Source: Peptococcia bacterium
GTDB lineage: Bacteria; Bacillota; Peptococcia; Peptococcales; SKKY01
Direction: 5' to 3'
Length of the DNA stretch: 64,000 nt
Assembly: GCA_965228015.1 (NCBI GenBank)
Contig: OZ245787.1
Coordinates: 1,588,023 to 1,652,022 of the forward strand
Shown here: positions 20,560 through 54,922 of the stretch, piece after piece
Layout: each line of letters opens with the position of its first letter
How positions within the stretch are numbered: the stretch's first letter is position 1
Notes under the pieces: generated by a model
Told to the model about the DNA's origin: nothing
The model's database searches: none
The model's input: the letters and a program-made list of their open reading frames with translations, nothing else
Translations under genes and position numbers: made by a program

Positions 20560-20677
20560 AAAATACCATCCTTCCCTTTTCAGAATAAAATATAAATTAA
20601 CCACATTCCTTAAAGTTTACCCCAAAAGGTGGTAAAATAAAAAGAAAATAACCCGCTGATTTGGGGACGTTTTGGTG

Positions 20678-21973
20678 TGATCCCCTAAAAGGGTACAGAT
20701 TAGGGACAGTAGATTTCAATAAATTAATTACATGAAAAAATCTTTTTATAGAATCTTGGAGGGACACCTCCAAGATTCTATTGTGTCCTATCATTTATAT
20801 AATGATTCATGTACTCCTCAGTTATTTCTTTTATTTCTTCAATACTTTTGAGTCTTTTTTTTGTGAAGATTAATACTTTCTGTTTTGTAATGGCTAAAAA
20901 AACTTTCCGCTTTAGCATTGTTCCAACAGTTTCCCCTTCTAGACATGCTTTGAATAGCTCCTAGGGTATTTAAATATCCTGAATATTCTTTGCTAGTGTA
21001 CTGGACTCCCTGGTCACTGTGAATAATAGTATCATTAAGGTCAAACTTTTTTGATAACTTTTCAATCGTTTTCACCGTTAGAGTAGTGTCTGGATTTTTG
21101 CTATACTCCCAGCTAACTGGTTCATTATTAAAAAGATCTAATGCGACACACAAGTATAATTTTGAATTGCGATAAGGGATGCAAGCAATATCTGTAGCAA
21201 TCTTTTTTCCAGGTTTGTCTGTTTTAAAATCTCTTCTCAGGATATTCTCTTTAATCTGCTTATCATCATGTATTTTATTCTTCTTCCTTCTGATAATTGA
21301 TCCTAGGCTGTTCTCTCTCATGATTCTTTGTATCTTTTTATGATTTACAATAGTTTTAAAAACAAATCGAAGTTCATTTTGAATCTGTCTGTATCCATAA
21401 ACTTTTTTGATTTATTATATATCTGAATAATTATTTTCTTAATTGGGACTTCTTTTTTTATTGGTTTGTTTCTGAAGTTGTAATAGGACTTTCTTTTTAC
21501 TTCAGCAATTTCACAAAGAAGTTTTACTGAATATTTAAATTCCAATACAAAGATAGCTTTATATTTTAATTCTCTGGCTTTTATTTTTTAGGTATAAAGG
21601 GTTGTAAATGTTCTAATTATTCATAATATTCAATTCTGGCTCTTAATCTCTCATTTTCTTTTTCATATTCGATTTCTCTAGCTGTTCTTGGTTGATGTTC
21701 TATTTTATCTGGCTGGCTAGTTATTTTATCAGGATCTTTTTTAGAATCTTTAGAAATAAGTCCCTTTTCTTTTAATTGTTTTTCCCAATTAAGTATATAG
21801 TTTTTTGAAGATAAATTGTACTTTGCAGTAATCTTTCTTACCCCTAGGTTGCTTTCGTAATAGTCTTTAATTACAGAGAGTTTAAATTCATTAGAATAGT
21901 TCTTTTTTATTAAAATCAGCCCCCAAAATTAGTATATCTTACTGTCCCTAATTTGTGTAACTTTTGAGGGTCA
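20678..21973 (-). mobile_element. Degenerate relative of the dominant IS3-family element (copy F)
   Basis: Ends TGATCCCCTAAAAGGGTACA.. and ..TGAGGGTCA align with the IRs of the 1.3-kb IS. The transposase frame is broken many times (fragments 20839-21321, 21345-21545) and the start codon is lost. Confidence 0.75.
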
Positions 21974-22038
21974 GACTATTTCTAAAATCAGCGCGTTATC
22001 CACAGGCAGAGAAATTTTAAGGATATGAGGATATAGAA

Positions 22039-22421: not shown

Positions 22422-22795
22422 TGAAGATTATTTTAGTTGCCCTTGGCGGGAGTTTGGGTAGTTTAACCCGATTCAGGTTAGGGAAATTTTTTCTGGAAGA
22501 GGTTGGAATTCAATACCGATAGGAACCTTTTTTGTAAATATAACAGGAGCTTTTTTCTTGGCTTATTATCAGGTTTAGGTACAATAGGTACAGGTACAAG
22601 CGGGGACATATATATTTATAGATTTTTAGGAGATGGCTTTTTTGGAGCCTATACAACGTTTTCTACATTTATGTATGAAGGGTTCAATTTCTTTCAGGGA
22701 AAAAACAGTTAAACGCACTTGCTTACATAGGTTCAAGTATTATTTTAGAGATAATTGGTTTCACACTAGGTTTTTGGATTTCACCCTGTGGATAA
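22421..22795 (+). pseudogene. crcB: Fluoride ion channel CrcB (second of pair), frameshifted; its 3' end runs into the palindromic repeat
   Basis: MKIILVALGGSLGSLTRFRLG.., later ..GAYTTFSTFMYEG in other frames; the stop codon lies within the TGTGGATAA box at 22787-22795. Confidence 0.6.
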
Positions 22796-22817
22796 ATTGC
22801 ACTAAATAGAACTGGTC
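22784..22817. repeat. Half copy (right arm) of the DnaA-box palindromic repeat
   Basis: CCCTGTGGATAAATTGCACTAAATAGAAC, identical to the right arm of the copy at 26571-26600; the left arm is absent. Confidence 0.6.
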
Positions 22818-24115
22818 TGACCCCCAAAAATTACACAAAATTGGGACAGTAAGATATACTAATTTTGGGGGCTGATTTTAATGACAAAGAACTATTCTAA
22901 TGAATTTAAACTCTCTGTAATTAAGGAATATTACGAAAGCAATCTTGGGGCAAGAAAGATTACTGCAAAGTACAATTTATCTTCAAAAAATCTTGTTCTT
23001 AATTGGGAAAAACAATTAAAAGAAAAAGGACTTCTTCCAACAGAAGCTAAGAAAGATCCGGATAAGATAAAAATCAGATCAGATAAAATAGATTTTCCTG
23101 AGAAAACACAAAGAGAAATTGAATACGAAAAAGAAATAGAACATCTTTATGCTAAAATTGAATACTACGAACAATTAGAGCATTTACAGCCCTTTATTTC
23201 TAAAAAAACAAAAGTCAGGGAGCTAAAGTACAGAGCTATATTTGCTTTGGAATTTAAATATACAGTAAAATTTCTTTGCGAAATTGCTGGAGTAAAAAGA
23301 AAAGCCTATTGCAATTTCAGAGACAAACCAATAAAAAAAGAAGATTCCATTGAGAAAATAATTATTCAAATATATAACAAATCAAAAGGAATTTTTGGTT
23401 ACAGAAGAATAGGAAATGAGCTAAGAAATGCGTTTAAAATAGTTGTTAATCATAAAAAGATTCAAAGAATAATGCAGGAAAACAATCTCAGATCCAGAAT
23501 CAGAAGAAAAAAGAATAGGATTCAAGATGATAAACAATTCAAAGCCAATATATTAAACAGGGATTTTAAGGCAAGTCGCCCAGGAGAAAAAATAGCCACA
23601 GATATTACCTGTATTCCTTACAGAAACTCTAAGCTATATCTGTGTGTTGCCCTAGATCTGTTTAACAATGAGCCAGTAAGCTGGGAATACAGTAAGAATC
23701 CTGACAGCAAGCTGACTGTAAAAACTATTGAAAAACTTTCAAAAAAGATAGGTATTAAGAATACTGTTATCCATAGTGATCAAAGTGTTCAATACACAAG
23801 CAAAGAATATTCCAGCTATTTAAAGTCTTTAGGAGCAGTTCAAAGTATGTCCAGAAGAGGAAATTGCTGGGATAATGCGAAGATTGAAAGTTTCTTTAGC
23901 CATTACAAAACAGAAAGTATTAATCTCTACAAGAAAAGAATCAAAAGTTTTAAAGATATAAAAGAAATTACTGAAGATTACATTAAATTTTATATAAATG
24001 ACAGGACGCATAGAAACCTTGGAGGCGTCCCTCCAAGGTTTCTATAAACAGATTTTTTCATTTAATTAATTTGGTGAAATTTACTGTCCCAGAAGTGTAC
24101 CCTTTTTGGGGGTCA
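22818..24115 (+). mobile_element. IS3-family insertion sequence, dominant type, copy A
   Basis: IRs TGACCCCCAAAAATTACAC..TGGGACAGTAA / ..TTACTGTCCCAGAAGTGTACCCTTTTTGGGGGTCA (may extend 4-5 bp as TGGTC/CACCA); one of five near-identical copies. Confidence 0.85.
22881..24047 (+). CDS. IS3-family transposase, uninterrupted single ORF (388 aa)
   Basis: N-terminal HTH (NYSNEFKLSVIKEYYESNLGARKI), rve core ..ATDITCIPY.., HSDQSVQYTS, RRGNCWDNAKIESFF. Confidence 0.85.
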   Translation: MTKNYSNEFKLSVIKEYYESNLGARKITAKYNLSSKNLVLNWEKQLKEKGLLPTEAKKDPDKIKIRSDKIDFPEKTQREIEYEKEIEHLYAKIEYYEQLEHLQPFISKKTKVRELKYRAIFALEFKYTVKFLCEIAGVKRKAYCNFRDKPIKKEDSIEKIIIQIYNKSKGIFGYRRIGNELRNAFKIVVNHKKIQRIMQENNLRSRIRRKKNRIQDDKQFKANILNRDFKASRPGEKIATDITCIPYRNSKLYLCVALDLFNNEPVSWEYSKNPDSKLTVKTIEKLSKKIGIKNTVIHSDQSVQYTSKEYSSYLKSLGAVQSMSRRGNCWDNAKIESFFSHYKTESINLYKKRIKSFKDIKEITEDYIKFYINDRTHRNLGGVPPRFL

Positions 24116-24200
24116 CACCAAAGCGTCCCCTGCGGAGCTGATTTGCCTCTTTGTTTTTAATTTGTTTTATGTTATTATTTTTTAGATTGAAGGTGATATT

Positions 24201-26531: not shown

Positions 26532-26600
26532 GGGGAAGCTTCCATTTGGTGCAATTTATCCACAGCCTCAACCCTGTGGATAAATTGCACTAAATAGAAC
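26532..26600. repeat. DnaA-box palindromic repeat (full copy) abutting IS copy B
   Basis: GGGGAAGCTTCCATTTGGTGCAATTTATCCACAG cctcaac CCTGTGGATAAATTGCACTAAAT; perfect TTATCCACA at 26556-26564 and TGTGGATAA at 26575-26583. Confidence 0.7.
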
Positions 26601-26605
26601 TGGTC

Positions 26606-27902
26606 TGACCCCCAAAAATTACACAAAATTGGGACAGTAAGATATACTAATTTTGGGGGCTGATTTTAATGACAAAGAACTATTCTAATGAATTTAAACT
26701 CTCTGTAATTAAGGAATATTACGAAAGCAATCTTGGGGCAAGAAAGATTACTGCAAAGTACAATTTATCTTCAAAAAATCTTGTTCTTAATTGGGAAAAA
26801 CAATTAAAAGAAAAAGGACTTCTTCCAACAGAAGCTAAGAAAGATCCGGATAAGATAAAAATCAGATCAGATAAAATAGATTTTCCTGAGAAAACACAAA
26901 GAGAAATTGAATACGAAAAAGAAATAGAACATCTTTATGCTAAAATTGAATACTACGAACAATTAGAGCATTTACAGCCCTTTATTTCTAAAAAAACAAA
27001 AGTCAGGGAGCTAAAGTACAGAGCTATATTTGCTTTGGAATTTAAATATACAGTAAAATTTTTTTGCGAAATTGCTGGAGTAAAAAGAAAAGCCTATTGC
27101 AATTTCAGAGACAAACCAATAAAAAAAGAAGATCCCATTGAGAAAATAATTATTCAAATATATAACAAATCAAAAGGAATTTTTGGTTACAGAAGAATAG
27201 GAAATGAGCTAAGAAATGCATTTAAAATAGTTGTTAATCATAAAAAGATTCAAAGAATAATGCAGGAAAACAATCTCAGATCCAGAATCAGAAGAAAAAA
27301 GAATAGGATTCAAGATGATAAACAATTCAAAGCCAATATATTAAACAGGGATTTTAAGGCAAGTCGCCCAGGAGAAAAAATAGCCACAGATATTACCTGT
27401 ATTCCTTACAGAAACTCTAAGCTATATCTGTGTGTTGCCCTAGATCTGTTTAACAATAAACCGGTAAGCTGGGAATACAGTAAGAATCCTGACAGCAAGC
27501 TGACTGTAAAAACTATTGAAAAACTTTCAAAAAGATAGATATTAAGAATACTGTTATCCATAGCGATCAAGATGTTCAATACACAAGCAAAGAATATTCC
27601 AGCTATTTAAAGTCTTTAGGAGCAGTTCAAAGTATGTCCAGAAGAGGAAATTGCTGGGATAATGCGAAGATTGAAAGTTTCTTTAGCCATTACAAAACAG
27701 AAAGTATTAATCTCTACAAAAAAAGAATCAAAAGTTTTAAAGATATAAAAGAAATTACTGAAGATTACATTAAATTTTATATTAATGACAGGACGCAAAG
27801 AAGCCTTGGAGGTGTCCCTCCAAGGCTTCTATAAACAGATTTTTTCATTTAATTAATTTGGTGAAATTTACTGTCCCAGAAGTGTACCCTTTTTGGGGGT
27901 CA
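26606..27902 (+). mobile_element. IS3-family insertion sequence, dominant type, copy B
   Basis: Same IRs as copy A; splits prs from pth. Confidence 0.85.
26669..27834 (+). pseudogene. IS3-family transposase, frameshifted
   Basis: ORFs 26669-27538 and 27634-27834; the A run at 27529-27533 has 5 A where other copies have 6 (..KLSKKIDIK..). Confidence 0.8.
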
Positions 27903-27939
27903 CACCAAAGCGTCCCCTAAAAAATGAAAGGATCTTTTT

Positions 27940-35926: not shown

Positions 35927-36000
35927 GGGGATGTTTCTATTTTGATCGCGTTTTCCACAGGATAGCCCCTGTGGAAAACGCGATCAAAATAGAACTGGTC
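35927..36000. repeat. DnaA-box palindromic repeat (full copy) abutting IS copy C
   Basis: GGGGATGTTTCTATTTTGATCGCGTTTTCCACAG gatagcc CCTGTGGAAAACGCGATCAAAATAGAAC; boxes TTTTCCACA at 35951-35959 and TGTGGAAAA at 35970-35978. Confidence 0.7.
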
Positions 36001-37297
36001 TGACCCCCAAAAATTACACAAAATTGGGACAGTAAGATATACTAATCTTGGGGGCTGATTTTAATGACAAAGAACTATTCCGATGAATTTAAACTCTCTG
36101 TAATTAAGGAATATTACGAAAGCAATCTTGGGGTAAGAAAGATTACTGCAAAGTACAATTTATCTTCAAAAAATCTTGTTCTTAATTGGGAAAAACAATT
36201 AAAAGAAAAAGGACTTCTTCCAACAGAAGCTAAGAAAGATCCGGATAAGATAAAAATCAGATCAAATAAAATAGATTTTCCTGAGAAAACACAAAGAGAA
36301 ATTGAATACGAAAAAGAAATAGAACATCTTTATGCTAAAATTGAATACTACGAACAATTAGAGCATTTACAGCCCTTTATTTCTAAAAAAACAAAAGTCA
36401 GGGAGCTAAAGTACAGAGCTATATTTGCTTTGGAATTTAAATATACAGTAAAATTTCTTTGCGAAATTGCTGGAGTAAAAAGAAAAGCCTATTGCAATTT
36501 CAGAGACAAACCAATAAAAAAAGAAGATTCCATTGAGAAAATAATTATTCAAATATATAACAAATCAAAAGGAATTTTTGGTTACAGAAGAATAGGAAAT
36601 GAGCTAAGAAATGCGTTTAAAATAGTTGTTAATCATAAAAAGATTCAAAGAATAATGCAGGAAAACAATCTCAGATCCAGAATCAGAAGAAAAAAGAATA
36701 GGATTCAAGATGATAAACAATTCAAAGCCAATATATTAAACAGGGATTTTAAGGCAAGTCGCCCAGGAGAAAAAATAGCCACAGATATTACCTGTATTCC
36801 TTACAGAAGCTCTAAGCTATATCTGTGTGTTGCCCTAGATCTGTTTAACAATGAGCCAGTAAGCTGGGAATACAGTAAGAATCCTGACAGCAAGCTGACT
36901 GTAAAAACTATTGAAAAACTTTCAAAAAAGATAGATATTAAGAATACTGTTATCCATAGCGATCAAGGTGTTCAATACACAAGCAAAGAATATTCCAGCT
37001 ATTTAAAGTCTTTAGGAGCAGTTCAAAGTATGTCCAGAAGAGGAAATTGCTGGAATAATGCGAAGATTGAAAGTTTCTTTAGCCATTACAAAACAGAAAG
37101 TATTAATCTCTACAAGAAAAGAATCAAAAGTTTTAAAGATATAAAAGAAATTACTGAAGATTACATTAAATTTTATATAAATGACAGGACGCAAAGAAAC
37201 CTTGGAGGTGTCCCTCCAAGGTTCTATAAACAGATTTTTTCATTTAATTAATTTGGTGAAATTTACTGTCCCAGAAGTGTACCCTTTTTGGGGGTCA
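36001..37297 (+). mobile_element. IS3-family insertion sequence, dominant type, copy C
   Basis: Same IRs; lies between hup and the S4-domain gene. Confidence 0.85.
36064..37251 (+). CDS. IS3-family transposase, uninterrupted ORF (395 aa)
   Basis: Full-length with HSDQGVQYTS and RRGNCWNNAKIESFF. A 1-nt difference near the 3' end lengthens the tail relative to copy A. Confidence 0.85.
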   Translation: MTKNYSDEFKLSVIKEYYESNLGVRKITAKYNLSSKNLVLNWEKQLKEKGLLPTEAKKDPDKIKIRSNKIDFPEKTQREIEYEKEIEHLYAKIEYYEQLEHLQPFISKKTKVRELKYRAIFALEFKYTVKFLCEIAGVKRKAYCNFRDKPIKKEDSIEKIIIQIYNKSKGIFGYRRIGNELRNAFKIVVNHKKIQRIMQENNLRSRIRRKKNRIQDDKQFKANILNRDFKASRPGEKIATDITCIPYRSSKLYLCVALDLFNNEPVSWEYSKNPDSKLTVKTIEKLSKKIDIKNTVIHSDQGVQYTSKEYSSYLKSLGAVQSMSRRGNCWNNAKIESFFSHYKTESINLYKKRIKSFKDIKEITEDYIKFYINDRTQRNLGGVPPRFYKQIFSFN

Positions 37298-37329
37298 CAC
37301 CAAAGCGTCCCCTGAAGGAGGTGGGCGGC

Positions 37330-40633: not shown

Positions 40634-40707
40634 CCTGAATTTATTCTAGAGAAAGCAGAATGAATTAAAGTTAAATTATTGTTATTTTTATGTTAAGGGG
40701 AATTAAG

Positions 40708-42417
40708 ATGTACAAAGCAGTAGAAAAAATTATCCGCAGAAAATGGGACACGTCCCTTGGAATGAAAAGGGGAAACGGTTGCGAACACGGAAACATCCCC
40801 AGCGCAAGTGATGCAAGCGGGGACACTTCTAGAGATGTGAAAATTTCCAGAGTTGAGGGAAGTTCCCCCCCACCCGTTATCATTTTAGGCCTTTCAGGTG
40901 GTCCCGATTCCATGGCCCTTTTCCATATATTAAATAAATTAAGGGAAAAATATTCCTTTAAACTTGTTGCGGCTCACGTGAACCACATGTTCCGGGGAGA
41001 AGAGGCGGATGAGGAAGAAGCCTATCTGCAAAAAATGGTTAAAGAACTTGTCTCTCAGTCAGATGCCGGCTTGACCATTGAAACTCTTCGAGTGGATGTA
41101 AAGAAAATCGCTCAGGAAAGAAAACTTTCTAATCAGGATGCCGGACATCAGGTGCGGAAAGAATTTTTTCAGATGCTTAGTAAAAAATATGATGCAGATT
41201 ATGTTTTTCTCGCTCATCATCAAGATGACCGGGTTGAGAGTTTTTTTCTTCATCTTCTTCATGGCGCCGGAGTTCAGGGCTTAACGGCTCTTTCGAAAGT
41301 GGAGAATTACGGTGAAGATGGAAGCGGGTTGAAAGTAATCAGGCCATTAATAGGATTTTCCAAGGATGAGATTCTTAAATTTTGCCAGGAGCAGGGGATT
41401 TTCTATTTCAAAGATCCCAGCAATGAAAAGGCTTTGTACAATAGGAATAAAATTCGCTTGGAACTGATACCCCAGCTGGAGCAAGAATATAATCCGAAGA
41501 TTAAGGATGTAATTCTTCGCAGTGTGGAGATTCTTGAAGACGAAGATGCTTTTTTGAATGATGTAGTTCAGGAAAAGTACCAAGAGCTTGTTCGGGAGAA
41601 TTTTTCAGAGGAAGTGGCGCTGCTACTTTTAGATAAGAAAGAATTCCAAAAATTTCATAAAGGAATCCAACAGCGCCTTGTGATAAAGATTTTAAATAAA
41701 TTAGCTCCAGGAGAAGTCGGATATAACTTTGAAAAGATTGAAAAAATCCTGGAGCTTTTAAATGAAGAAAAAGGGCAGCGAAGGTACAAACTTTCCCACA
41801 ACTCCTGGCTGGAAGTGGGCTACGAGGAAGGAAAGTTTGTGCTGTATCCTCAACGGGAATCAGCTGAAAATGTCGAGGATGCAGGAAGCCATTTCGATTT
41901 TGACGTGGACATCGAAATGGACATCCACGTCGATGTCCATTTCGATAAAATCGAAATGGAAGGCCCCCTCACCTTTCAGGCCGGGGGCCAAAGCTTCACC
42001 TTCGCTGCTGTCGCAGCTGGGACGCTTCCATTCTCAGCGGGTTTTTCACATCCCCAACCTTGTGGAAAACCCGCGGAAAAAAGAAGCGTCCCAGCTTCCG
42101 CGCTGATTTTTGCTCCGGGGAAGCTTACCCTCCGCACCCGTCGGGATGGGGATGTCATTAAACCCGCCGGGGGGAAGACTAAAAAGCTGAAGAAATTTTT
42201 TATGGAGAAAAAAATTCTTCAAAATGAGCGGGACAAGATCATCCTCCTGGCCTCCGGCAAGGAAATCATCTGGATCCCCAACATGGTCATCTCCCAAAAC
42301 TATCTTCCGGAAAATCCTGCAGATTGTGTCTCTAATAAAAACAATCTTGAACAGAGTGGAAAAAAAATGTTAAAAGTCTTCTGGAGGGGGAAAGAGAGTT
42401 TGAAAAATAGCCCCTGA
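40708..42417 (+). CDS. tilS: tRNA(Ile)-lysidine synthetase with repeat-derived insertions
   Basis: PP-loop LSGGPDSMAL, HHQDDRVESF, C-terminal RTRRDGDVIKPAGG..KKLKKFF; about 100 aa longer than usual because of inserts at about 40745-40875 and 41880-42140. Confidence 0.85.
   Translation: MYKAVEKIIRRKWDTSLGMKRGNGCEHGNIPSASDASGDTSRDVKISRVEGSSPPPVIILGLSGGPDSMALFHILNKLREKYSFKLVAAHVNHMFRGEEADEEEAYLQKMVKELVSQSDAGLTIETLRVDVKKIAQERKLSNQDAGHQVRKEFFQMLSKKYDADYVFLAHHQDDRVESFFLHLLHGAGVQGLTALSKVENYGEDGSGLKVIRPLIGFSKDEILKFCQEQGIFYFKDPSNEKALYNRNKIRLELIPQLEQEYNPKIKDVILRSVEILEDEDAFLNDVVQEKYQELVRENFSEEVALLLLDKKEFQKFHKGIQQRLVIKILNKLAPGEVGYNFEKIEKILELLNEEKGQRRYKLSHNSWLEVGYEEGKFVLYPQRESAENVEDAGSHFDFDVDIEMDIHVDVHFDKIEMEGPLTFQAGGQSFTFAAVAAGTLPFSAGFSHPQPCGKPAEKRSVPASALIFAPGKLTLRTRRDGDVIKPAGGKTKKLKKFFMEKKILQNERDKIILLASGKEIIWIPNMVISQNYLPENPADCVSNKNNLEQSGKKMLKVFWRGKESLKNSP
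42019..42092. repeat. IS-free copy of the DnaA-box palindromic repeat, inside the tilS ORF
   Basis: GGGACGCTTCC attctca GCGGGTTTTTCACA tccccaac CTTGTGGAAAACCCGC ggaaaaaa GAAGCGTCCC; outer 10-bp and inner stems pair. Confidence 0.7.
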
Positions 42418-44948: not shown

Positions 44949-44979
44949 AAAAGACCGCTGATTAGGGGACAGTTTGGTG

Positions 44980-46277
44980 TGACCCCCAAAAAGGGTACAC
45001 TTCTGGGACAGTAAATTTCACCAAATTAATTAAATGAAAAAATCTGTTTATAGAAGCCTTGGAGGGACACCTCCAAGGCTTCTTTGCGTCCTGTCATTAA
45101 TATAAAATTTAATGTAATCTTCAGTAATTTCTTTTATATCTTTAAAACTTTTGATTCTTTTCTTGTAGAGATTAATACTTTCTGTTTTGTAATGGCTAAA
45201 GAAACTTTCAATCTTCGCATTATCCCAGCAATTTCCTCTTCTGGACATACTTTAAACTGCTCCTAAAGACTTTAAATAGCTGGAATATTCTTTGCTTGTG
45301 TATTGAACACCTTGATCACTATGGATAACAGTATTCTTAATATCTATCTTTTTTGAAAGTTTTTCAATAGTTTTTACAGTCAGCTTGCTGTCAGGATTCT
45401 TACTGTATTCCCAGCTTACCGGTTTATTGTTAAACAGATCTAGGGCAACACACAGATATAGCTTAGAGTTTCTGTAAGGAATACAGGTAATATCTGTGGC
45501 TATTTTTTCTCCTGGGCGACTTGCCTTAAAATCCCTGTTTAATATATTGGCTTTGAATTGTTTATCATCTTGAATCCTATTCTTTTTTCTTCTGATTCTG
45601 GATCTGAGATTGTTTTCCTGCATTATTCTTTGAATCTTTTTATGATTAACAACTATTTTAAACGCATTTCTTAGCTCATTTCCTATTCTTCTGTAACCAA
45701 AAATTCCTTTTGATTTGTTATATATTTGAATAATTATTTTCTCAATGGAATCTTCTTTTTTTATTGGTTTGTCTCTGAAATTGCAATAGGCTTTTCTTTT
45801 TACTCCAGCAATTTCGCAAAGAAATTTTACTGTATATTTAAATTCCAAAGCAAATATAGCTCTGTACTTTAGCTCCCTGACTTTTGTTTTTTTAGAAATA
45901 AAGGGCTGTAAATGCTCTAATTGTTCGTAGTATTCAATTTTAGCATAAAGATGTTCTATTTCTTTTTCGTATTCAATTTCTCTTTGTGTTTTCTCAGGAA
46001 AATCTATTTTATCTGATCTGATTTTTATCTTATCCGGATCTTTCTTAGCTTCTGTTGGAAGAAGTCCTTTTTCTTTTAATTGTTTTTCCCAATTAAGAAC
46101 AAGATTTTTTGAAGATAAATTGTACTTTGCAGCAATCTTTCTTACCCCAAGATTGCTTTCGTAATATTCCTTAATTACAGAGAGTTTAAATTCATCGGAA
46201 TAGTTCTTTGTCATTAAAATCAGCCCCCAAGATTAGTATATCTTACTGTCCCAATTTTGTGTAATTTTTGGGGGTCA
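44980..46277 (-). mobile_element. IS3-family insertion sequence, dominant type, copy D (inverted)
   Basis: Same IRs; same transposase lesions as copy E (shared nonsense codon and NKPVSW variant); palindromic repeat on its left-end (inner) side. Confidence 0.85.
45048..46214 (-). pseudogene. IS3-family transposase with nonsense codon
   Basis: ..SLGAV*SMSRRGNCWDNA: TAA replaces the CAA of other copies; ORFs 45252-46214 and 45048-45248. Confidence 0.8.
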
Positions 46278-46349
46278 GACCAGTTCTATTTAGTGCGGGC
46301 TATCCACAAGAGTTACCCTGTGGATAGCCCGCTGATTTTGGAAGCGTCC
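46278..46349. repeat. DnaA-box palindromic repeat (mirror image of 53461-53531), with a 9-bp duplication at its outer end
   Basis: GTGCGGGCTATCCACAAGAGTTACCCTGTGGATAGCCCGCTGATTTTGGAAGCGTCC; boxes at 46300-46308 and 46319-46327. GAAGCGTCC (46341-46349) is repeated at 49551-49559. Confidence 0.7.
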
Positions 46350-46511
46350 GTTAGTGTAAAATAATTATGGGTAAAAAAACAAAAAAATATTAGAGCAACT
46401 CCTTATGTTACAATTAAATCGCTAAACCAAATCGCAAAAAAGGAGAAACTCTAATGAATAATAGGGGGGTGCGGACAAAAACCTGGACTAAAAATACAGG
46501 AGGATGTCCAT

Positions 46512-47288
46512 ATGTATTCCTACGAAGAAAAAATTAAAGCTGTAAAATTATTAATTAAATATGACAAATGTTATGCACAAGTAATGCGGGAGTTAGGATA
46601 CCTAGATAGAAAATCCCTAACGGCGTGGTACAAACAATATTTAAGTAATGGTGACTTAATTAAAGAATGTGAAAGAAAAGCAAAATTTTCTGAAGAAGAA
46701 AAATACAGAGCTGTTAATCATTATTTAGAACACGGAAAATGTGTACGACGCACTACAAGAATTCTTGGATATCCAAGCAGACCTACTCTTGATAAATGGA
46801 TACTAGAATTGGTGCCTGAACAAAAGAAATATTGTCGCTCAGGTAACGCATTGATAAAATATACTCGTGAACAAAAAGAAGCAGCAGTTATAGCTTTATG
46901 CTCACGGGAAAAATCGGCCAGAGAAGTAGCGAATGAAATTGGCATTACCTGTGAGAGGCTTTATAGTTGGAAAAATCAGCTTCTAAAAAAAGGGTGGAAT
47001 AGGACAATGCCAAAAAAAGATAAAGTATCCCCAAAAGTGAAAACTAATATTAGTGATGATCAAGCAAAATTATTATTAAAAGAAAAAGATGTTCTTTTAA
47101 AACAAGTGGAAGAATTAAAAAAGGATATATATCATCTTCAGTTAAAAAGAGATATTTTGGAAAAAGCAGCAGAAATAATAAAAAAAGATAAGGGCATTAG
47201 CATAAAAACACTTTCTAATAGTGAAAAAGCCATGGCGATTAATGCCCTAAGAGAGAATTTTTTTAAAAGATTTATTGATAATTCTTAA
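46512..47288 (+). CDS. IS3-family transposase, N-terminal part (HTH and leucine zipper)
   Basis: 258 aa; two HTH-like segments, coiled coil ..LLKQVEELKKDIYHLQLKRDILEKAAEIIKK. Confidence 0.75.
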   Translation: MYSYEEKIKAVKLLIKYDKCYAQVMRELGYLDRKSLTAWYKQYLSNGDLIKECERKAKFSEEEKYRAVNHYLEHGKCVRRTTRILGYPSRPTLDKWILELVPEQKKYCRSGNALIKYTREQKEAAVIALCSREKSAREVANEIGITCERLYSWKNQLLKKGWNRTMPKKDKVSPKVKTNISDDQAKLLLKEKDVLLKQVEELKKDIYHLQLKRDILEKAAEIIKKDKGISIKTLSNSEKAMAINALRENFFKRFIDNS

Positions 47289-48084
47289 CATGGCAAAAAG
47301 TAGCTATTTTTATCAGGATTTTGTATTAAGTAAAGAAGATAAATATTCCAGTTTACGTAATAAAATTAAAGAAGTTTTTATTGAATCTTCAAAACGTTAT
47401 GGTTATCGAAGAATTCATTCAGTTATAAAGAAAACCGGTATAATTATTTCAGAAAAAATTGTTAGAAGAATTATGAAAGAAGAGAAACTTTCAATACCAG
47501 GCATTAAGAAAAAGAAATACAACTCATATAAAGGTGAGATAAGCCCTGTAATGCCAAATTTGTTGAAACACAATTTTCATGCTGATAAACCAAACCAGAA
47601 GTGGCTAACAGATCTAACCGAGTTCCATATTCCTGCCGGGAAAATATATCTTTCTCCAATTATTGACTGCTTTGATGGGCTGCCAGTCAGTTGGAGTATT
47701 GGAACCTCTCCTGATGCCACATTGGTAAATACAATGTTAGACAAAGCCATCAGCACTTTAAATAAAAATGAAAGACCTATAGTACATACAGATCGTGGAG
47801 CACACTATCGTTGGCCTGGCTGGATTGAGAGAATGAAAAAAGCTCATCTTGTTCGTTCTATGTCAAAGAAAGGTTATTCTCCAGATAATTCTGCATGCGA
47901 GGGTTTCTTTGGCAGAGTAAAAAACGAAATGTTTTATGGATATTCATGGAAAGAAGTCACAATAAAACAATTTATTGAAATATTAGATGAATATTTAAGG
48001 TGGTATGCAGAAAAAAGAATTAAAATTTCCTTTGGGGGAATGAGTCCATTGACTTATAGAAAAAGCTTAGGTTTAATTGCTTAG
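47275..48084 (+). CDS. IS3-family transposase, catalytic part (rve/DDE)
   Basis: ..WLTDLTEF.., HTDRGAHY, YSPDNSACEGFFGRVKNE. It lies in the +1 frame relative to the upstream part and would fuse if the T7 run 47258-47264 were T6. Confidence 0.75.
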   Translation: MIILNMAKSSYFYQDFVLSKEDKYSSLRNKIKEVFIESSKRYGYRRIHSVIKKTGIIISEKIVRRIMKEEKLSIPGIKKKKYNSYKGEISPVMPNLLKHNFHADKPNQKWLTDLTEFHIPAGKIYLSPIIDCFDGLPVSWSIGTSPDATLVNTMLDKAISTLNKNERPIVHTDRGAHYRWPGWIERMKKAHLVRSMSKKGYSPDNSACEGFFGRVKNEMFYGYSWKEVTIKQFIEILDEYLRWYAEKRIKISFGGMSPLTYRKSLGLIA

Positions 48085-48108
48085 GTCCAAAAAAACGTCC
48101 ACACCCCC

Positions 48109-49489
48109 ATATTATACATGAAATTGCAACTAAAATCAGTAAAGAAATAGCAGAAAATATGGAAACAACTTTAATTGAGGGAAATAATATATCTGAATTC
48201 ATTTTAAAAACCAAAAAAATGCTGGATGAAGTTGGGGTTGCAATTACAGAAAAAGTACTTGAAACTGTAGATATTTTAGTTAAAAAAGATTGTGCAAGAA
48301 AAAGAGACTGGAAAATAAAGGAAACAAAGTCGAAGAAAAGTTTGGCGACGATATTTGGTGAAGTAACCTATAAAAGAACGTATTATGTTTATAAAATTAC
48401 CGGTGAATATAAATACTTATCTGATGAAGCTGTTGGTATTGAAGCAAATGACAGAATGGATATATTGCTAGAATCAATGTTAATAGAAGAAGCAATAGAG
48501 ATACCATACAGAAAAAGTAGCGAAAAAATATCGAAGAATGTATATCTTACTAGTCAAACAGTAATGAATTCTATTAGAAAGCTTAAAGATATTTCTAATC
48601 ATGCAGCACCAGTGAAAAAAACTGATTCTCAAGCTAAGATTTTGTACATCGAAGCTGATGAAGATCATGTTTCACTTCAAAGAGGAACATGTGCCGAACC
48701 TAGATTAATTTATGTTCACGAAGGTAAGTGAAAGGTAAGTAAAGATAGATATGAATTAATAAATCCCAGATACTTTAGTGGTCTCTACCAAGATAGTGCT
48801 GATTTATGGCTTGAAGTAGCTGATTATATTGATAGCAACTATGAAGAAGAAACTATCGAAAAGATATATTTATCAGGAGATGGAGCCAACTGGATAAAAC
48901 AAGGCAAAGAATGGATTAAAGATAGTATCTATGTTTTAGATAGATACTATTTGTCGAAATATATAAAGAAGGCAACTGCTCATATGAAAGGCACACACCA
49001 AATGATGTGGTATTACATAAATACGAAAAGGAAAGATTTCGTAAAAGATTTATTCAAAGCAATAATTGAAGAAACAGAATCAGAAACAAAAAATAGAAGC
49101 AATAAAAGATGCTAGAAGTTATGTGTTAAATAATTGGGAAGGTATAATGAATCAATATGACCCGGATTATATAGGCTGTAGCACAGTAGGCCATATTAGT
49201 CATATATTATCTGCAAGATTAAGTTCAAGGCCTCTAAGCTGGTGCAGAGAAGGTGTTGATCAAATGTCACGTCTGAGGGCTTTTAAGGCTAATTCAGGTA
49301 ATGTATATGATTTAGTAAAAGAAAGAAGCAAGAAAAACAGAAACAAGAATCATAAAATTAGAAAGCCGTGTTATAAAAAAAGCTACGAACCTAATATCAG
49401 ATGAGAAATTCGGTAATGTGCCAGTAGTTTTAATTGGCAAGAGAACTTGGAAAAGAGAATTATTTAAAAGGATAGCGAGTGCGATTTAG
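48109..49489 (+). pseudogene. ISLre2-family transposase, main part (first three codons at 46454-46463); nonsense plus frameshifts
   Basis: ..RKRDWKIKETKSKKSLATIFGEVTYKRTYY..; in-frame TGA at 48730 (..VHEGK*KVSKDRYELINPRYF); frame changes near 49090 and at the A7 run 49375-49381. Confidence 0.7.
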
Positions 49490-49566
49490 CACGTAATACA
49501 TACAAGGAGTTTTTTTATTCTTTTAAAACCCATAATTAATTGACACGATCGAAGCGTCCCCTCCGC

Positions 49567-49594
49567 TTGATTACCTGAAAAAAAATGGTATAAT
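49567..49594 (+). promoter_or_regulatory. Putative sigma-A promoter of prfA-prmC
   Basis: TTGATT (49567-49572), 16-nt spacer, TGgTATAAT extended -10 (49589-49594 hexamer). The -10 sits in the loop of hairpin ACCTGAAAAAA/TTTTTTCAGGT. Confidence 0.5.
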
Positions 49595-49644
49595 TTTTTC
49601 AGGTAAATTTAATATATTTTAATTATTAAGGTGGAATTTATAAA

Positions 49645-50721
49645 ATGTTTGACAGACTGGAAGCAATTGAAAAGAAATATGATGAACTGAATGAGTTGAT
49701 GAGCGACATAAACGTCATTAACAACCACAGCGAGCTGCAAAAATATGCCAGGGCCCAATCCGCCCTGTCCGATACAGTAAACGCTTACCGCGCATATAAA
49801 AAAGTAATCGAAAGCCTTCAAGAATCTAAAGAAATGCTTAAAGACAAACTGGATCCTGACATGAAGGAAATGGTGGAGATGGAAATCGAAGAGCTTGCCG
49901 AGAAGAAAAAAGTTCTCGAGGAAGAGTTGAAGATCCTTCTTCTCCCCAAAGATCCTAACGACGAGAAGAACGTTGTTATGGAAATCCGCGCCGGCGCCGG
50001 CGGCGACGAGGCTAGCCTCTTCGCCGCCCATGTTTTCCGCATGTACTCCCGTTACGCGGAAAACATGGGCTGGAAAGTTGAGATCCTGAACACCAGCTGG
50101 ACCGGCGTGGACGGAATCAAGGAAGTCAGCTTCCTCATCTCCGGCAACAAAGTTTACAGCTTCTTAAAATATGAAAGCGGCGTGCACAGAGTTCAACGTG
50201 TTCCCGACACAGAATCCCAGGGACGTATCCACACCTCCACAGCAACAGTTGCAGTTTTACCAGAAGCTGAAGATGTTGAAGTGAAAATCGAAGCCAACGA
50301 CATCCGCGTGGATGTGTTCTGCTCCAGCGGCCCGGGTGGACAATCTGTAAACACAACCCAGTCCGCAGTCCGCATCACCCACATTCCCACAGGCATCAGC
50401 GTATCCTGTCAGGATGAAAAATCTCAGCACAAAAACAAAGACAAAGCTATGAAAGTTCTTCGCGCCCGCCTTTTTGAAAAAGCTCAGGAAGAAGCCGCTG
50501 GAGAAATGGCCTCAGCCCGCAAGAGCCAGGTAGGCACAGGAGACCGCAGCGAGCGCATCCGCACCTATAACTATCCTCAAGGTAGAATGACGGATCACAG
50601 AATCGGCCTCACCCTCCACAAGCTGGACAACATCCTCCTTGGAGATCTTGATGAAGTAGTCAACGCCCTGATCACCTACGATCAGGCTGAAAAATTAAAG
50701 GACGCAGGTAAAAATGACTGA
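49645..50721 (+). CDS. prfA: Peptide chain release factor 1
   Basis: 358 aa; PEAEDVEV.., [14 protein letters not shown] motif. Confidence 0.95.
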
Positions 50722-51715
50722 TAAAAAGGTTTCATCCATCCTCCGGGAAATTGGTGGCGACAACCAAGGCCTCACTCAGGATGAGATTAACGACCTCCGC
50801 TACATTCTGGCCCACATTTTGGACACAGAAAAAGCCCGACTTATACTTTACACGGACCGGGAGCTCACAGATAGTCAGTTTCAGCAATGGCAGGACGCCC
50901 GCATTAAGCTGATTCAGCAAAAAATCCCCGTTCACTACATTATAAATACAAAAAACTTTATGGGATTAGACTTTTTCGTCGACGAGAGGGTGTTGATCCC
51001 TCGTTTTGATACAGAAATTTTGGTGGAACAAGCCATGTTGGAGATAAAAAAGCTAAGGGATCTCGAAGAATTTTCTGAAGATTCCCTAGTCAGGGATATA
51101 GATAGGAAGATCAGAGTTCTAGAGCTTTGCACTGGAAGCGGTGCTATTCCAATAAGTTTGATTCATTACCTTGCAAATGATTCTGCCGACAAACCTATGC
51201 CGGGTATCCAAATTATGCCTTTAGAAATTACGGCTATAGACATCAGTCAAGATGCCCTTGATGTTGCAGATGTTAATAAGAAGAAACTTTTGTCTCCCGG
51301 GGAGCAAAAGCAGCTAAAGTTCATCCACAGCGATCTTTTTGAAAACGTCCCCCGACGGAACTCTCATCCGGAATCTCAATCGAGTCCGGATGAGAGTTTT
51401 TCTTCCGGCACTGGCTATCATCTAATTATCGCCAATCCCCCTTACGTGATTCACCAGGAGTACGAGGCTCTGGATGAAAAAGTAAAAAAAGAACCCTTCG
51501 GCGCTCTTGTCGCCGAAGAGGATGGACTTTTTTTCTACGAAAAAATCCTCTCCCAGGCCCGGGACTATCTACATCCGGACCAGGGTGTAATCCTATTCGA
51601 AATAGGAAGCCTGCAAGGCCCCGCCCTGCAGGCAATGACTGCCGCCAATGGCTACCAGGAGTGCACCATCATTCCCGACTACGCAGGGCACCCCCGGGTA
51701 GCCATAATACGCTGA
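50714..51715 (+). CDS. prmC: Release-factor glutamine N5-methyltransferase with an extra palindrome-encoded segment
   Basis: 333 aa; [13 protein letters not shown] motif, IIANPPYV catalytic motif; about 20 extra residues [20 protein letters not shown] just before NPPY. Confidence 0.85.
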
Positions 51716-51729
51716 TTCTGGGACGTTTC

Positions 51730-53460
51730 GAGACCAGTGAAAAAGTCTTTCTTTAAAAGAAGATTCTTCCCTTTTCAGCAAAATAAGACTATTTTTTTAA
51801 ATTCCAAATTTGATTTAAAAAATTGCACTCTAAAGAGGATAGTATTGATGCTATCCTCTTTATGTTTACCGCAATTGCTGCCAGCTTCGATTGAACAGAC
51901 ACACTTAAGAGACCATATCCTCTTGCACGACATAGTCCGTGAAATCTTTTTAGCTCGGCATTCTTGCCTTCAATGCTTGCTCTCTTCTTGTACTTTTCTT
52001 TAAACTCTTCCGTTTTTTGTTCTTAAGATATTTCATAATATTCTCCAGTATTTAAACCAGTTGTGAAAATTTCTCGTGCTTTTTTACCAGCACATTGATC
52101 ATGCTTTGGGCAATTTTTACACTGCTTTGCTTCAAAATAATAATTGTAATATCCATAGCCTAAAGAATAAAATGTTTCTTTCCTTTTAAAATATCTCTTT
52201 TTTACACTTATGTTTCCTTGGCTACATTCCCATTCGTCCGAATCTTTGTTGTATGAAAATCCATTTTCATCAATTCTGTAAGCTGACCCACTTGCTGGAA
52301 TAAAGGCTTTTGCTTTTAATTCCTTTATTGAATCTAAAATGTTTTTTCTGAAATAAGCTTTGTCTCCATATACTTCTTTTACAGAAACTCCTGCTTTTAT
52401 GGTCTCTTCAAGCATTTCCTCTGTTAAATCTCCATCAGTATATACCCCATCTCCGGTTCTAACGCAGGTAATTAATCTTTCTTCTGTAGTCATAATAAAT
52501 TCTGTTTTATAGCCAAAAAAGTCTTGGCTTTTACTTTTTCTGCCAACACGAGCATCTTCATCTATTAATGAACGTACTCCTTTTTGATTTATGAACTTGG
52601 GATCATTTAATATATTTTTAGCTTTTTCAATAATAGAATTGGTTTTGAGTAGCTCTGTATTTTTTCTGCTTCATAGATTACTTTTTCTAAGTAATCTATC
52701 ATTACTGCTTTTGCTTCTTTATGGTCTTCAATCTCCTTGTACTCTGGAACATCAGGAAGACCGGGTAGTTTTTCTTCTGTTTCTTCTTCATATGTATTTA
52801 TAATTTTTTAGCAAGATGTTTCGTTAATCTTTCCGGGGTTTTTATTGTATTGGCTTCTATATGTGTAGCACCAATACTTACACTATTTCCTTCAATAATT
52901 TTTTGTTCAACACATTGGCGAATAATTTCTGTAATAATTTCATCTAATGTGGAGTTTTGAAGTCTTTGGGTTCTGAATTTTGAGAGGAGACTTTTATCTG
53001 GGAGGGATTCTTCGGGATTGATTCCTAAAAAATACATATATGCTAAATTAAGTTCTGCTTCCTGTATAACCTTTTCGTCAGAAAGGTTATACAGGAAGCT
53101 GCAGGAAAAGAAGTTTACACATTAATTCTGGTTCTTTGGCTGGTCTGCCAAAAGTTTTGCAGTAGCTGTTTTTCCAATAATTTATTAATAAAGCTGAAAT
53201 TTACTACAGATTCTATTCTTTTTAATATATGATTTTCAGGTATTTTATTATATAATTGTAAATATAAAGAAATTTGCTTTGATTTTAATCTAAGCATAAA
53301 AAGCCCACCATTTTGGTTTATTTTGTTTTGGTAGATAAATTATACCATAAAAAGGTGGGCTTTTTTCTGTTTTCTTAGATATATCAACGCTTTCAGCTTT
53401 TTTAGTATAAAAATTTGTCCTTCACCTTTAACTTAAAGAAAGGCTTTTTCACTGGTCTCG
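51730..53460 (-). mobile_element. IS1182/IS5-like element, heavily degenerate
   Basis: IRs CGAGACCAGTGAAAAAGTCTTTCTTTAA / TTAAAGAAAGGCTTTTTCACTGGTCTCG. Flanks are inverted copies of a CGCTGATT..GGACG motif, so the true IRs may be longer. Confidence 0.65.
52023..53297 (-). pseudogene. IS1182-family (DUF772 N-terminal, DDE) transposase fragments
   Basis: Fragments 53115-53297 (..LYNKIPENHILKRIESVVNFSFI), 52798-53037, 52023-52493 (..YGDKAYF.., Cys-rich ..KQCKNCPKHDQC); the C-terminal part downstream is also broken. Confidence 0.65.
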
Positions 53461-53531
53461 GACGCTTCCAAAATCAGCGGGCTATCCACAGGGTAACTCT
53501 TGTGGATAGCCCGCACTAAATAGAACTGGTC
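53461..53531. repeat. DnaA-box palindromic repeat abutting IS copy E
   Basis: GACGCTTCCAAAATCAGCGGGCTATCCACAG ggtaactc TTGTGGATAGCCCGCACTAAATAGAAC; boxes at 53482-53490 and 53501-53509. Confidence 0.7.
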
Positions 53532-54829
53532 TGACCCCCAAAAATTACACAAAATTGGGACAGTAAGATATACTAATCTTGGGGGCTGATTTTAATGACA
53601 AAGAACTATTCCGATGAATTTAAACTCTCTGTAATTAAGGAATATTACGAAAGCAATCTTGGGGTAAGAAAGATTGCTGCAAAGTACAATTTATCTTCAA
53701 AAAATCTTGTTCTTAATTGGGAAAAACAATTAAAAGAAAAAGGACTTCTTCCAACAGAAGCTAAGAAAGATCCGGATAAGATAAAAATCAGATCAGATAA
53801 AATAGATTTTCCTGAGAAAACACAAAGAGAAATTGAATACGAAAAAGAAATAGAACATCTTTATGCTAAAATTGAATACTACGAACAATTAGAGCATTTA
53901 CAGCCCTTTATTTCTAAAAAAACAAAAGTCAGGGAGCTAAAGTACAGAGCTATATTTGCTTTGGAATTTAAATATACAGTAAAATTTCTTTGCGAAATTG
54001 CTGGAGTAAAAAGAAAAGCCTATTGCAATTTCAGAGACAAACCAATAAAAAAAGAAGATTCCATTGAGAAAATAATTATTCAAATATATAACAAATCAAA
54101 AGGAATTTTTGGTTACAGAAGAATAGGAAATGAGCTAAGAAATGCGTTTAAAATAGTTGTTAATCATAAAAAGATTCAAAGAATAATGCAGGAAAACAAT
54201 CTCAGATCCAGAATCAGAAGAAAAAAGAATAGGATTCAAGATGATAAACAATTCAAAGCCAATATATTAAACAGGGATTTTAAGGCAAGTCGCCCAGGAG
54301 AAAAAATAGCCACAGATATTACCTGTATTCCTTACAGAAACTCTAAGCTATATCTGTGTGTTGCCCTAGATCTGTTTAACAATAAACCGGTAAGCTGGGA
54401 ATACAGTAAGAATCCTGACAGCAAGCTGACTGTAAAAACTATTGAAAAACTTTCAAAAAAGATAGATATTAAGAATACTGTTATCCATAGTGATCAAGGT
54501 GTTCAATACACAAGCAAAGAATATTCCAGCTATTTAAAGTCTTTAGGAGCAGTTTAAAGTATGTCCAGAAGAGGAAATTGCTGGGATAATGCGAAGATTG
54601 AAAGTTTCTTTAGCCATTACAAAACAGAAAGTATTAATCTCTACAAGAAAAGAATCAAAAGTTTTAAAGATATAAAAGAAATTACTGAAGATTACATTAA
54701 ATTTTATATTAATGACAGGACGCAAAGAAGCCTTGGAGGTGTCCCTCCAAGGCTTCTATAAACAGATTTTTTCATTTAATTAATTTGGTGAAATTTACTG
54801 TCCCAGAAGTGTACCCTTTTTGGGGGTCA
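53532..54829 (+). mobile_element. IS3-family insertion sequence, dominant type, copy E
   Basis: Same IRs; identical ORF translations and the same nonsense codon as copy D. Confidence 0.85.
53595..54761 (+). pseudogene. IS3-family transposase with nonsense codon
   Basis: TAA at 54555-54557 in place of CAA; ORFs 53595-54557 and 54561-54761. Confidence 0.8.
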
Positions 54830-54922
54830 CACCAAAGCGTCCCCTCCGCTTTGCAAAAAATTTACATTAATTAATTTGCCTTGTATAGTCTTAATTGATA
54901 AAATATCCGAGTAAATTTAATT

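Follow-up and report, generated by a model that had tools for sequence, protein, structure and literature searches.

We found a family of short palindromic host repeats within 64,000 nucleotides of the genome of a Peptococcia bacterium (positions 1,588,023 to 1,652,022 of contig OZ245787.1, assembly GCA_965228015.1; this whole stretch is called the window in the following), and three families of insertion sequences (IS) have entered these repeats at the same few bases. Most probably (we would put it at about 0.8) the repeat is a host element of the repetitive extragenic palindromic (REP) type, present as single units and as inverted doublets (REPINs), whose conserved head serves as a sequence-specific landing site for a dominant IS3-family element, an IS1182-like element and an ISLre2-family element. 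A first-pass annotation of the same stretch had claimed that one palindrome type is targeted by these three families, and all three were indeed located in the same head. It had described the palindrome as flanking two copies of the dominant element, named D and E in Table 1; these two are flanked by it, but so are all six copies of the window.

Each repeat unit consists of a head of 10-12 nt (GGGGACGCTTCC), a short spacer and an arm ending in ATCCACAG. Two units in inverted orientation give a REPIN-like doublet of ~75 nt, made up of head, arm, loop and the mirror image, that forms a hairpin; single units occur as well. A profile of the arms yielded 12 arms and no other convincing match within the window, and more arms are present at other loci of the same strain. 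The sequence AAGCGTCCCC (≤1 mismatch) was found 12 times in the window compared to 1.5 expected occurrences, a number reached in 0 of 100 shuffles, and AATCAGCG was found 8 times (1.4 expected). At sites C, X, D and E the arm is paired with a perfectly complementary arm, followed by an inverted second head GGGGA(A/C/T)G(C/T)TTC(C). The stem sequences vary from locus to locus (GTGCAATTTATCCACAG at C, GATCGCGTTTTCCACAG at X, GCGGGCTATCCACAG at D and E) with complementarity kept. Stepwise reconstruction of the state before insertion, the check that the first-pass annotation had put forward, gave a complete palindromic repeat with a long hairpin. After excision in silico the repeats of D and E fold into long two-helix hairpins (-24 and -29 kcal/mol, z = -5.2 and -7.8) with the heads as outer helix, and the z-scores for the folds of the reconstructed repeats lie between -5 and -10.

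The dominant element carries its own inverted repeats of 18-40 bp, TGGT(C/G)TGACCCCCAAAAA. They begin 5 nt further out (TGGTC..CACCA) than first annotated, so that D and E have the boundaries listed in Table 1. All six window copies show AA(G/C/A)(C/T)GTCCCC directly outside the right end, and outside the left end an arm CTGTGGA-N7-10 followed by the spacer (A)AAATAGAA(C/G). Insertion takes place between G and C in GAAG↓CGTCCCC (the arrow marks the insertion point) with a 3-bp duplication. Seven extra copies (L006, L009, L011, L132, L134, L135 and L138) were obtained from contigs of the ENA assembly ERZ25074352, 100% identical to the window. Together with A, B, C, X, D and E this gives 13 distinct copies in the strain, every one of them in a head and adjoining (A)A(G/C/A)CGTCCCC, and in 12 of the 13 the side of the right inverted repeat lies against AAGCGTCCCC. 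Perfect 3-bp duplications track the local variant of the head, being AAA at A, AAC at D and AAG at L132 and L138, while at L006 and L135 the left-hand AAG alone was recovered. What look like half palindromes at A, B, L011 and L138 are either single units or arms whose partner lies further away: L011 has its left arm ~170 nt upstream, within the 3'-terminal part of an aminotransferase gene, and the arms at A and B enclose a crcB pair.

Assignment of the dominant element to the IS3 family is based on the match to NCBIfam model NF033516 (294 bits, and 282 bits for a second, nested IS3 element, cut-off 160, scored on intact proteins), the TGGTC..CACCA inverted repeats and the 3-bp duplication. Pfam matches of the transposases in the window were rve/HTH_21, UPF0236 and DUF772/DDE_Tnp_1. 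The dominant transposase (copy X in Table 1; homologues P0003-P0017) is encoded by one open reading frame (ORF) of ~395 aa that extends over the whole IS3 model without an orfA/orfB frameshift. Relatives with 50% identity likewise have a single ORF, and the ORFs of the other copies in the strain range from 125 to 428 aa, a variation which may reflect homopolymer errors in the long-read assembly rather than decay. Regarding the base to the left of the IS, we noted C in six copies (GAAC-IS) and G in four others, the empty target having G; the C could result from gene conversion with a D-like copy or from carry-over of a donor base.

The two other families use the same head. The IS1182-like element of the window is bordered by a 7-bp duplication (GACGTTT and GACGCTT), its copy at L009 shows a perfect one (GGGGACGCTT-IS-GACGCTT), and one more end lies in L135, so that all three of the copies or ends seen are located in heads at GACGCTT. 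The ISLre2 element is flanked by a 9-bp duplication, in agreement with the rule for this family (PMC8024623). On the strand AAATAGAAGCGTCCCC the duplicated bases are AAG for IS3, AAGCGTC for the IS1182-like element and GAAGCGTCC for ISLre2, the latter two corresponding to the 7 nt GACGCTT and the 9 nt GGACGCTTC; one cut lies within one base for the three families, with staggers of 3, 7 and 9 nt. In total 8 of the 12 repeat heads in the window are occupied by an IS, and 8 of the 11 IS insertions fall into ~120 nt of head sequence out of 64,000, which by our own arithmetic has a probability of <1e-15 under random placement. None of three ISL3 copies (two of them in the window) and not the one copy of the nested IS3 type are located in heads. 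The target is the outer head of 7-10 nt, GGGGACGCTT, and not the central palindrome.

The junctions described in the first-pass annotation were reproduced. This holds for the recomputed ends of the ISLre2 duplication, for the end of the IS1182-like element (..CACTGGTCTCG↓GACGCTTCC at 53460/53461), to which the 7-bp duplication can now be added, and for the motif CGCTGATT-N-GGGGAC(G/A)(T/G)TT, found three times directly against an IS end (Table 1). At the left side of E an alternative local hairpin, CGCTGATT-ct-GG-GACGCTT-CC-aa-AATCAGCG, holds the 7 duplicated bases in its loop (z = -4.6). This accounts for the CGCTGATT-N-GGGACGTTT motifs, which are the outer stem and head of such local hairpin units interrupted by an IS. 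As the general target, a GACGCTT loop of fixed 7-nt size with a local stem was considered and not adopted, being found in only ~17% of the cross-phylum hits described below and in only some copies here. As the loop form is not general in this genome, we treat the target as a sequence and not as a proven structure.

Sites without IS were found in a relative. A pattern scan of one genome per species with GGGACGCTTC-N40-70-GAAGCGTCCC recovered the CCACAG-type repeat of the window in two metagenome-assembled genomes (MAGs), one of which is the uncultured Eubacteriales isolate SRP274231_co1_216, with ~11 doublets in 64 kb of its sequence. Its contig CAZNNQ010000004.1 is collinear with the window from 24.3 to 43.2 kb at 85-97% protein identity. 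At the sites orthologous to C and X the MAG reads ..GGAAGCGTCCCC.. without interruption, compared to ..GAAC-IS-AAGCGTCCCC.. in the window (alignments A1 and A2), and a repeat within tilS is IS-free in both genomes. The empty sites at C and X show that the IS entered pre-existing repeats and, therefore, that the palindrome is not an extended IS end. A search for the exact end of the dominant IS in one genome per species gave 0 matches, so the species representative does not carry this element. Exact look-ups of prfA, of the transposase of copy B and of P0001 retrieved no record. Comparison with a genome lacking the insertions, which had been proposed at the outset, thus gave two orthologous sites that keep the repeat, and the earlier view of the palindromes as landing pads stands: excision rebuilds a complete hairpin repeat, the association recurs at other loci of the strain, and the relative has IS-free sites. 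The stems of the orthologous repeats (26532-26600 and L061 5686-5758; 35927-35995 and L045 5662-5735) are strongly diverged. In the window both arms have changed jointly, retaining perfect complementarity over 17 bp, which suggests arm-to-arm correction or selection for the hairpin.

The same target was observed in more distant relatives of the dominant element. P0004, an IS with 53% identity in other metagenomes, has AAAGAAC-IS-AACCGTCCCC flanks with a perfect AAC duplication in all its copies, at ≥4 loci. Among 80 metagenome loci with IS3 relatives from the Joint Genome Institute (JGI), three belong to the clade (41-50% identity), and their right flanks read AACCGTCC, CTTCGTCCC and AACCATCCC; one of the three also has AATAGAAC on the left. 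At the ends of the 77 more distant IS3 elements of this set the motif was not found. As the same site is used by copy A, diverged by 20%, and by relatives of 41-53% identity, the specificity appears heritable in the transposase lineage. By analogy with IS1397 and ISKpn1, recognition of the head is probably determined by the transposase.

What kind of repeat has been entered is indicated by the surroundings of P0004, which in three contigs follows a Y1_Tnp gene after 15 nt. On both sides this gene is bordered by a small hairpin with GGGGACGGTT, in inverted copies, AAGCACT-GGGGACGGTT-ATTTTTGCTT upstream and, on the other strand, AGTGCACC-GGGGACGGTT-CTTTATGCTT downstream. This is the canonical arrangement of a REP-associated tyrosine transposase (RAYT) and its REPs, and homologues of the protein are named REP-associated tyrosine transposase or RayT (NCBI, JGI). 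In a second organism a Lutispora RAYT has GGAAGCAATG-GGGACGGTT-CTTTTTGCTTCC upstream and a perfect doublet downstream. The GGGGACGGTT motif is near-identical to the window head and flanks a RAYT in two other organisms, which makes the head GGGGACG(C/G)TTC a hallmark of the REPs of this RAYT clade. A profile search for RAYTs in all fetched loci gave a single one, in L072 at 170 nt from the motif, too weak to count. Judged from their sequence, the window repeats are probably best called REP singlets and REPIN-like doublets of the GGGGACG(C/G)TTC class, and a RAYT-type Y1 transposase, seen beside the motif in other organisms, would have spread them. RAYT 'Group 1' spans 21 classes, Clostridia included (Bertels et al. 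2017, PMC5581495), and this clade possibly belongs to it.

Other properties of the repeats agree with a REP/REPIN identity. They are many short imperfect palindromes, occur as singlets and inverted doublets and have no target-site duplication, with no consistent direct repeat detected at the ends of 13 repeat copies. As to an extragenic location the picture is mixed: most copies are located at gene ends, but one lies in frame in tilS, and repeats also extend over the stop codon of prmC and into the 3'-terminal part of the aminotransferase gene. Searched against Rfam at gathering and permissive thresholds, the repeat matched nothing beyond generic hairpins, noise of the miRNA-precursor type, and full-text literature contained the motif in unrelated primers only. 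An autonomous element bounded by the repeat arms was considered and rejected, only host genes being found between distant arms (e.g. a SIMPL-like gene, L106). So was an inside-out interpretation in which the arms are abutted IS ends, because homology stops at the GGGG/CCCC ends and the host flanks are unique.

A number of observations weigh against targeted insertion into the heads as a complete account. L009 carries the dominant IS in reversed orientation. In five copies (B, C, X, E and L011) the duplication is imperfect, with AAC to the left of the IS and AAG to its right. A left flank of 14 nt (GCACTAAATAGAAC) is common to B, C, L011, D and E despite differing stems; plain transposition does not predict this, and gene conversion or joint movement of flank and IS is needed to explain it. 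Between D and E the identity extends over 1387 nt, takes in the whole repeat and stops at the repeat ends. The preference of ISLre2 rests on one case out of two because the copy in L135 lies outside any repeat, and no RAYT gene was found in the ~200 kb searched for this strain. Furthermore, the contigs from ERZ25074352 (L001-L012, L132-L138) are fold-back chimeric long-read contigs and valid for local junctions only. As to the nature of these chimeras, every strain-matching contig of that assembly is a palindromic fold-back centred near an IS copy, which looks like an assembly or read artefact and not like real inversions.

The identity of D and E, which stops exactly at the repeat ends, would be explained if the repeat or half of it were the mobile unit, moved by a RAYT-type enzyme with the IS as cargo. 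The same right arm, spacer and IS at three different loci (B, C and L011), the junctions at A, B, L011 and L138 that all start at C↓CTGTGGATA and the very high IS occupancy of repeats in the strain also fit such joint movement. It is nevertheless unlikely, as the relative holds the repeats of C and X without IS, the stems are strongly different from locus to locus whereas the IS bodies vary by only ~1%, and the perfect duplications fit the local head variants (AAA, AAC, AAG). Moreover, the IS of L009 adjoins a head alone, and the half repeats are accounted for by single units or distant partner arms as in L011 (~170 nt upstream). Joint movement is contradicted for C and X; for D and E it could still have taken place. 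Even less probable is ectopic gene conversion, by way of repeat homology on either side and in place of site-specific integration by the transposase, as the main route of the IS from repeat to repeat. Among the IS copies 31 sites are variable; they are arranged in blocks that fail the four-gamete test, and gene conversion among these mosaic copies is therefore real; the left flank shared beyond the IS end and the AAC/AAG mismatch at five copies are expected if the left junction is donor-derived. Yet homology on the right side amounts to just 10-17 nt, the perfect duplications at A, D, L132 and L138 track the local variant, the same target recurs in the 20%-diverged copy A and in 41-53% relatives from other organisms, and the IS1182-like and ISLre2 elements leave their own characteristic duplications in the same head.

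Next to no weight remains for a third alternative, in which the palindrome merely extends the end of the dominant IS or CGCTGATT forms the end of the IS1182-like element, even though each window copy has a palindrome or half of one at a fixed distance from its left end. It is refuted by the empty sites; IS-free repeats exist in tilS and in the relative, the dominant IS has its own inverted repeats of 18-40 bp, and the IS1182-like copy of L009 lacks CGCTGATT. This also answers the objection raised in the first-pass annotation that CGCTGATT may simply be the terminal repeat of the IS1182-like element, the outer flank in L009 being GCGCTAAAAAGGGGACGCTT and CGCTGATT adjoining A and D as well. In the landing-site interpretation, gene conversion extending into the repeat is the most likely cause of the imperfect duplications, the shared flank and the D/E identity. 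The annotation had offered recombination hot spots as the other role of the palindromes, and here the support is indirect, from the mosaic IS copies and the identity of D and E up to the repeat ends.

In the proposed mechanism the head would be read by the transposases themselves, and the dominant IS3 element integrates at GAAG↓CGTCCCC with a 3-bp duplication and its left end nearly always toward the repeat body. For positions 46278-53531 we suggest that two repeats were present at the beginning, one after ndk and one after prmC, and that D, E, the ISLre2 and the IS1182-like element entered four separate heads. The second IS3 type would then have entered the ISLre2 transposase gene, and gene conversion between IS copies would have homogenised D and E out to the repeat ends.

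Table 1. Positions of IS elements and REP-type repeats in the window (position 1 is its first nucleotide).
Feature	Positions	Strand	Remarks
REP head and outer stem beside copy A (CGCTGATT-T-GGGGACGTTT)	20654..20672		TTT 20670-20672 is one copy of the 3-bp duplication
Dominant IS3, copy A	20673..21978	-	diverged relative, ~80% identity to the others, same target position
REP singlet body of A (TTTCTAAAATCAGCGCGTTATCCACAG)	21979..22005
REP singlet arm left of copy B (CTGTGGATAAATTGCACTAAATAGAAC)	22786..22812		overlaps 3' end of second crcB-like gene
Dominant IS3, copy B	22813..24120	+	head remainder AAGCGTCCCC at 24121-24130
REPIN at site C	26532..26600		left head intact, 17-bp hairpin, spacer; IS-free orthologue in related MAG
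Dominant IS3, copy C	26601..27907	+	head remainder at 27908-27917
REPIN at site X	35927..35995		left head GGGGATGTTTC, hairpin GATCGCGTTTTCCACAG/CTGTGGAAAACGCGATC; IS-free orthologue in related MAG
Dominant IS3, copy X	35996..37302	+	intact single 395-aa transposase ORF 36064-37251; head remainder 37303-37312
Sole IS-free complete REPIN of the window	42018..42093		in frame within tilS (40690-42417)
REP head and outer stem after ndk (CGCTGATT-A-GGGGACAGTT)	44956..44974		GTT 44972-44974 is one copy of the perfect 3-bp duplication of D
Dominant IS3, copy D	44975..46282	-
REPIN D body	46283..46349		GTT duplication, spacer, hairpin GCGGGCTATCCACA..TGTGGATAGCCCGC, second head cut by ISLre2
ISLre2-family element	46350..49550	+	1553 bp without guest, transposase gene decayed; 9-bp duplication GAAGCGTCC at 46341-46349 and 49551-49559
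Second IS3-family element	46464..48108	+	orfA 46512-47288, orfB 47275-48084; after codon 3 of the ISLre2 transposase gene; ATA at 46461-46463 and 48109-48111
Outer stem CGCTGATT (holds prmC stop codon) and head GGGACGTTT	51710..51728		GACGTTT 51722-51728 is one copy of the IS1182-like duplication
IS1182-family element	51729..53460	-	inverted repeats CGAGACCAGTGAAAAAG, transposase gene fragmented; end ..CACTGGTCTCG↓GACGCTTCC
REPIN E body, identical to that of D	53461..53526		GACGCTT 53461-53467 is the second copy of the IS1182-like duplication
Dominant IS3, copy E	53527..54834	+	head remainder AAGCGTCCCC at 54835-54844

The ISLre2 element was assigned by a match to Pfam PF06782 and by NF033529 as best hit for its fragments, which stay below the full-length cut-off of this model because the gene is broken. 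For the IS1182-like element, with perfect inverted repeats of 17 bp, four fragments have NF033551 as their best model; together they span its positions 87-487, and all of them score below the full-length cut-off. The nesting of an IS3-type element in the ISLre2 transposase gene with an ATA duplication was borne out: its removal joins ATGAATAATA to TTATACATGAAATTGCAACTAAAATCAGTAAAGAA and restores ATG AAT AAT ATT ATA CAT GAA ATT GCA ACT AAA ATC AGT AAA GAA, i.e. MNNIIHEIATKISKE. This nested element likewise makes a 3-bp duplication. Its inverted repeats, GGGGG(G)TG(C/T)GGAC, start with G, so that the TG..CA feature applies to the dominant element only. Two ISL3-family elements (10771-12157 and 60260-61646), 99% identical and located outside REP heads, bracket 48 kb in inverted orientation and form a substrate for a large inversion.

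Regarding the neighboring genes, the prmC stop codon (TGA within CGCTGATT, at 51710-51717) and the last codons of the aminotransferase gene (L011 4066-4104) are derived from the repeat; the repeats therefore intrude into 3' coding ends. The REPIN in tilS lies between the PP-loop domain and the TilS_C domain and is read through (..GTLP....CGK..RSVP..) here and in the related MAG, where its counterpart is found at L045 1099-1172 within an ORF at 795-2285 on the minus strand. An in-frame REPIN inside a gene resembles the in-frame palindromic elements of Rickettsia. Between two inward-pointing single REP arms lie two crcB-like genes that appear to be frameshifted (21979-22812). Each head of these arms holds an IS3 copy (A and B, inverted), as if the genes were in the loop of one very long repeat.

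For IS1397 the point of entry is the loop of the palindromic unit, in this strain it is the outer head GAAG↓CGTCCCC. REPs have been described as targets of IS3, IS110, IS4, IS256 and IS5 elements (PMC1525189), and experiments cited in that publication assign the REP specificity of IS1397 and ISKpn1 to the transposase. The dominant element resembles IS1397, ISKpn1 and ISPsy8 in belonging to the IS3 family, in having each copy in a REP-type repeat at a fixed position with a short duplication and in keeping the specificity among related elements (PMC1525189). In line with this, all 13 copies lie at the head position and two orthologous repeats are empty. It differs from the IS1397 type by its Clostridia-like host group, another class of repeat and a single ORF of ~395 aa, and our description comes from sequence alone. 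The repeats share with REP/REPIN-RAYT systems the singlets and inverted doublets, the location mostly at gene ends and the lack of a target duplication. In classical REPs, described from gammaproteobacteria, the head is GT(A/G)G and precedes a GC-rich hairpin (PMC2817692), whereas here we find a conserved GGGGACG(C/G)TTC, often in a hairpin loop. [quoted passage not shown] Insertion of an IS1182-family element into hairpin-capable sequence is common to both cases, but in this strain every IS1182-like copy has duplicated one and the same heptamer, GACGCTT. Miniature inverted-repeat transposable elements mobilised by DDE transposases are similar to the repeats in size (~75 nt), terminal inverted repeats and many copies; in contrast to them the repeats have no flanking duplication, no autonomous parent with these ends was seen and single arms occur.

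Head palindromes are not confined to the window genome. In one genome per species we counted >119 compared to ~17 expected, under a uniform model that likely understates chance sharing of 10-mers. The hits come from Acidobacteria, Lentisphaerae, Planctomycetes, Proteobacteria, Lachnospiraceae and others, and the stems around the motif often co-vary. Position -1 is a G in 63% of them, C is found at +10/+11, and the flanks, A-rich and T-rich, are complementary. At the corresponding GTDB loci (L013-L131, e.g. L020, L035, L041, L067, L130) the head GGGGACGCTTC(C) is combined with unrelated interiors in many phyla, and its flanks often form short complementary stems that place it in a hairpin loop. 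In some Bacillota MAGs we noted tandem arrays of GGGGACGCTTCTCAC with a period of 24 nt. Sharing of the head among palindromic repeats across phyla is suggestive. Tentatively, and with the odds somewhat against it, GGGGACG(C/G)TTC may be the head of a REP superfamily that spans phyla and is tied to one widely distributed RAYT clade, possibly 'Group 1'. In that case an IS3 lineage dedicated to this head would have co-evolved as its parasite, and the head would be intrinsically prone to insertion, as a hairpin loop or the base of a cruciform, with unrelated DDE transposases converging on it.

New here are the host group, the class of repeat, the use of the same few bases by three families and the conservation of the target across a deep IS3 clade. 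The findings add IS1182 and ISLre2 to the families reported at REPs, with convergence at base level on one short site of a host repeat, and they define a class of REPs with a GGGGACG(C/G)TTC head outside the gammaproteobacterial GTAG type. A highly site-specific IS3 transposase with a defined target of 10-16 nt could have practical interest. For the organism itself, inverted near-identical IS copies, such as D and E around prfA-prmC and A and B around crcB, are substrates for inversion and conversion, and in this way the repeats shape the stability of an IS-laden 1.9-Mb genome.

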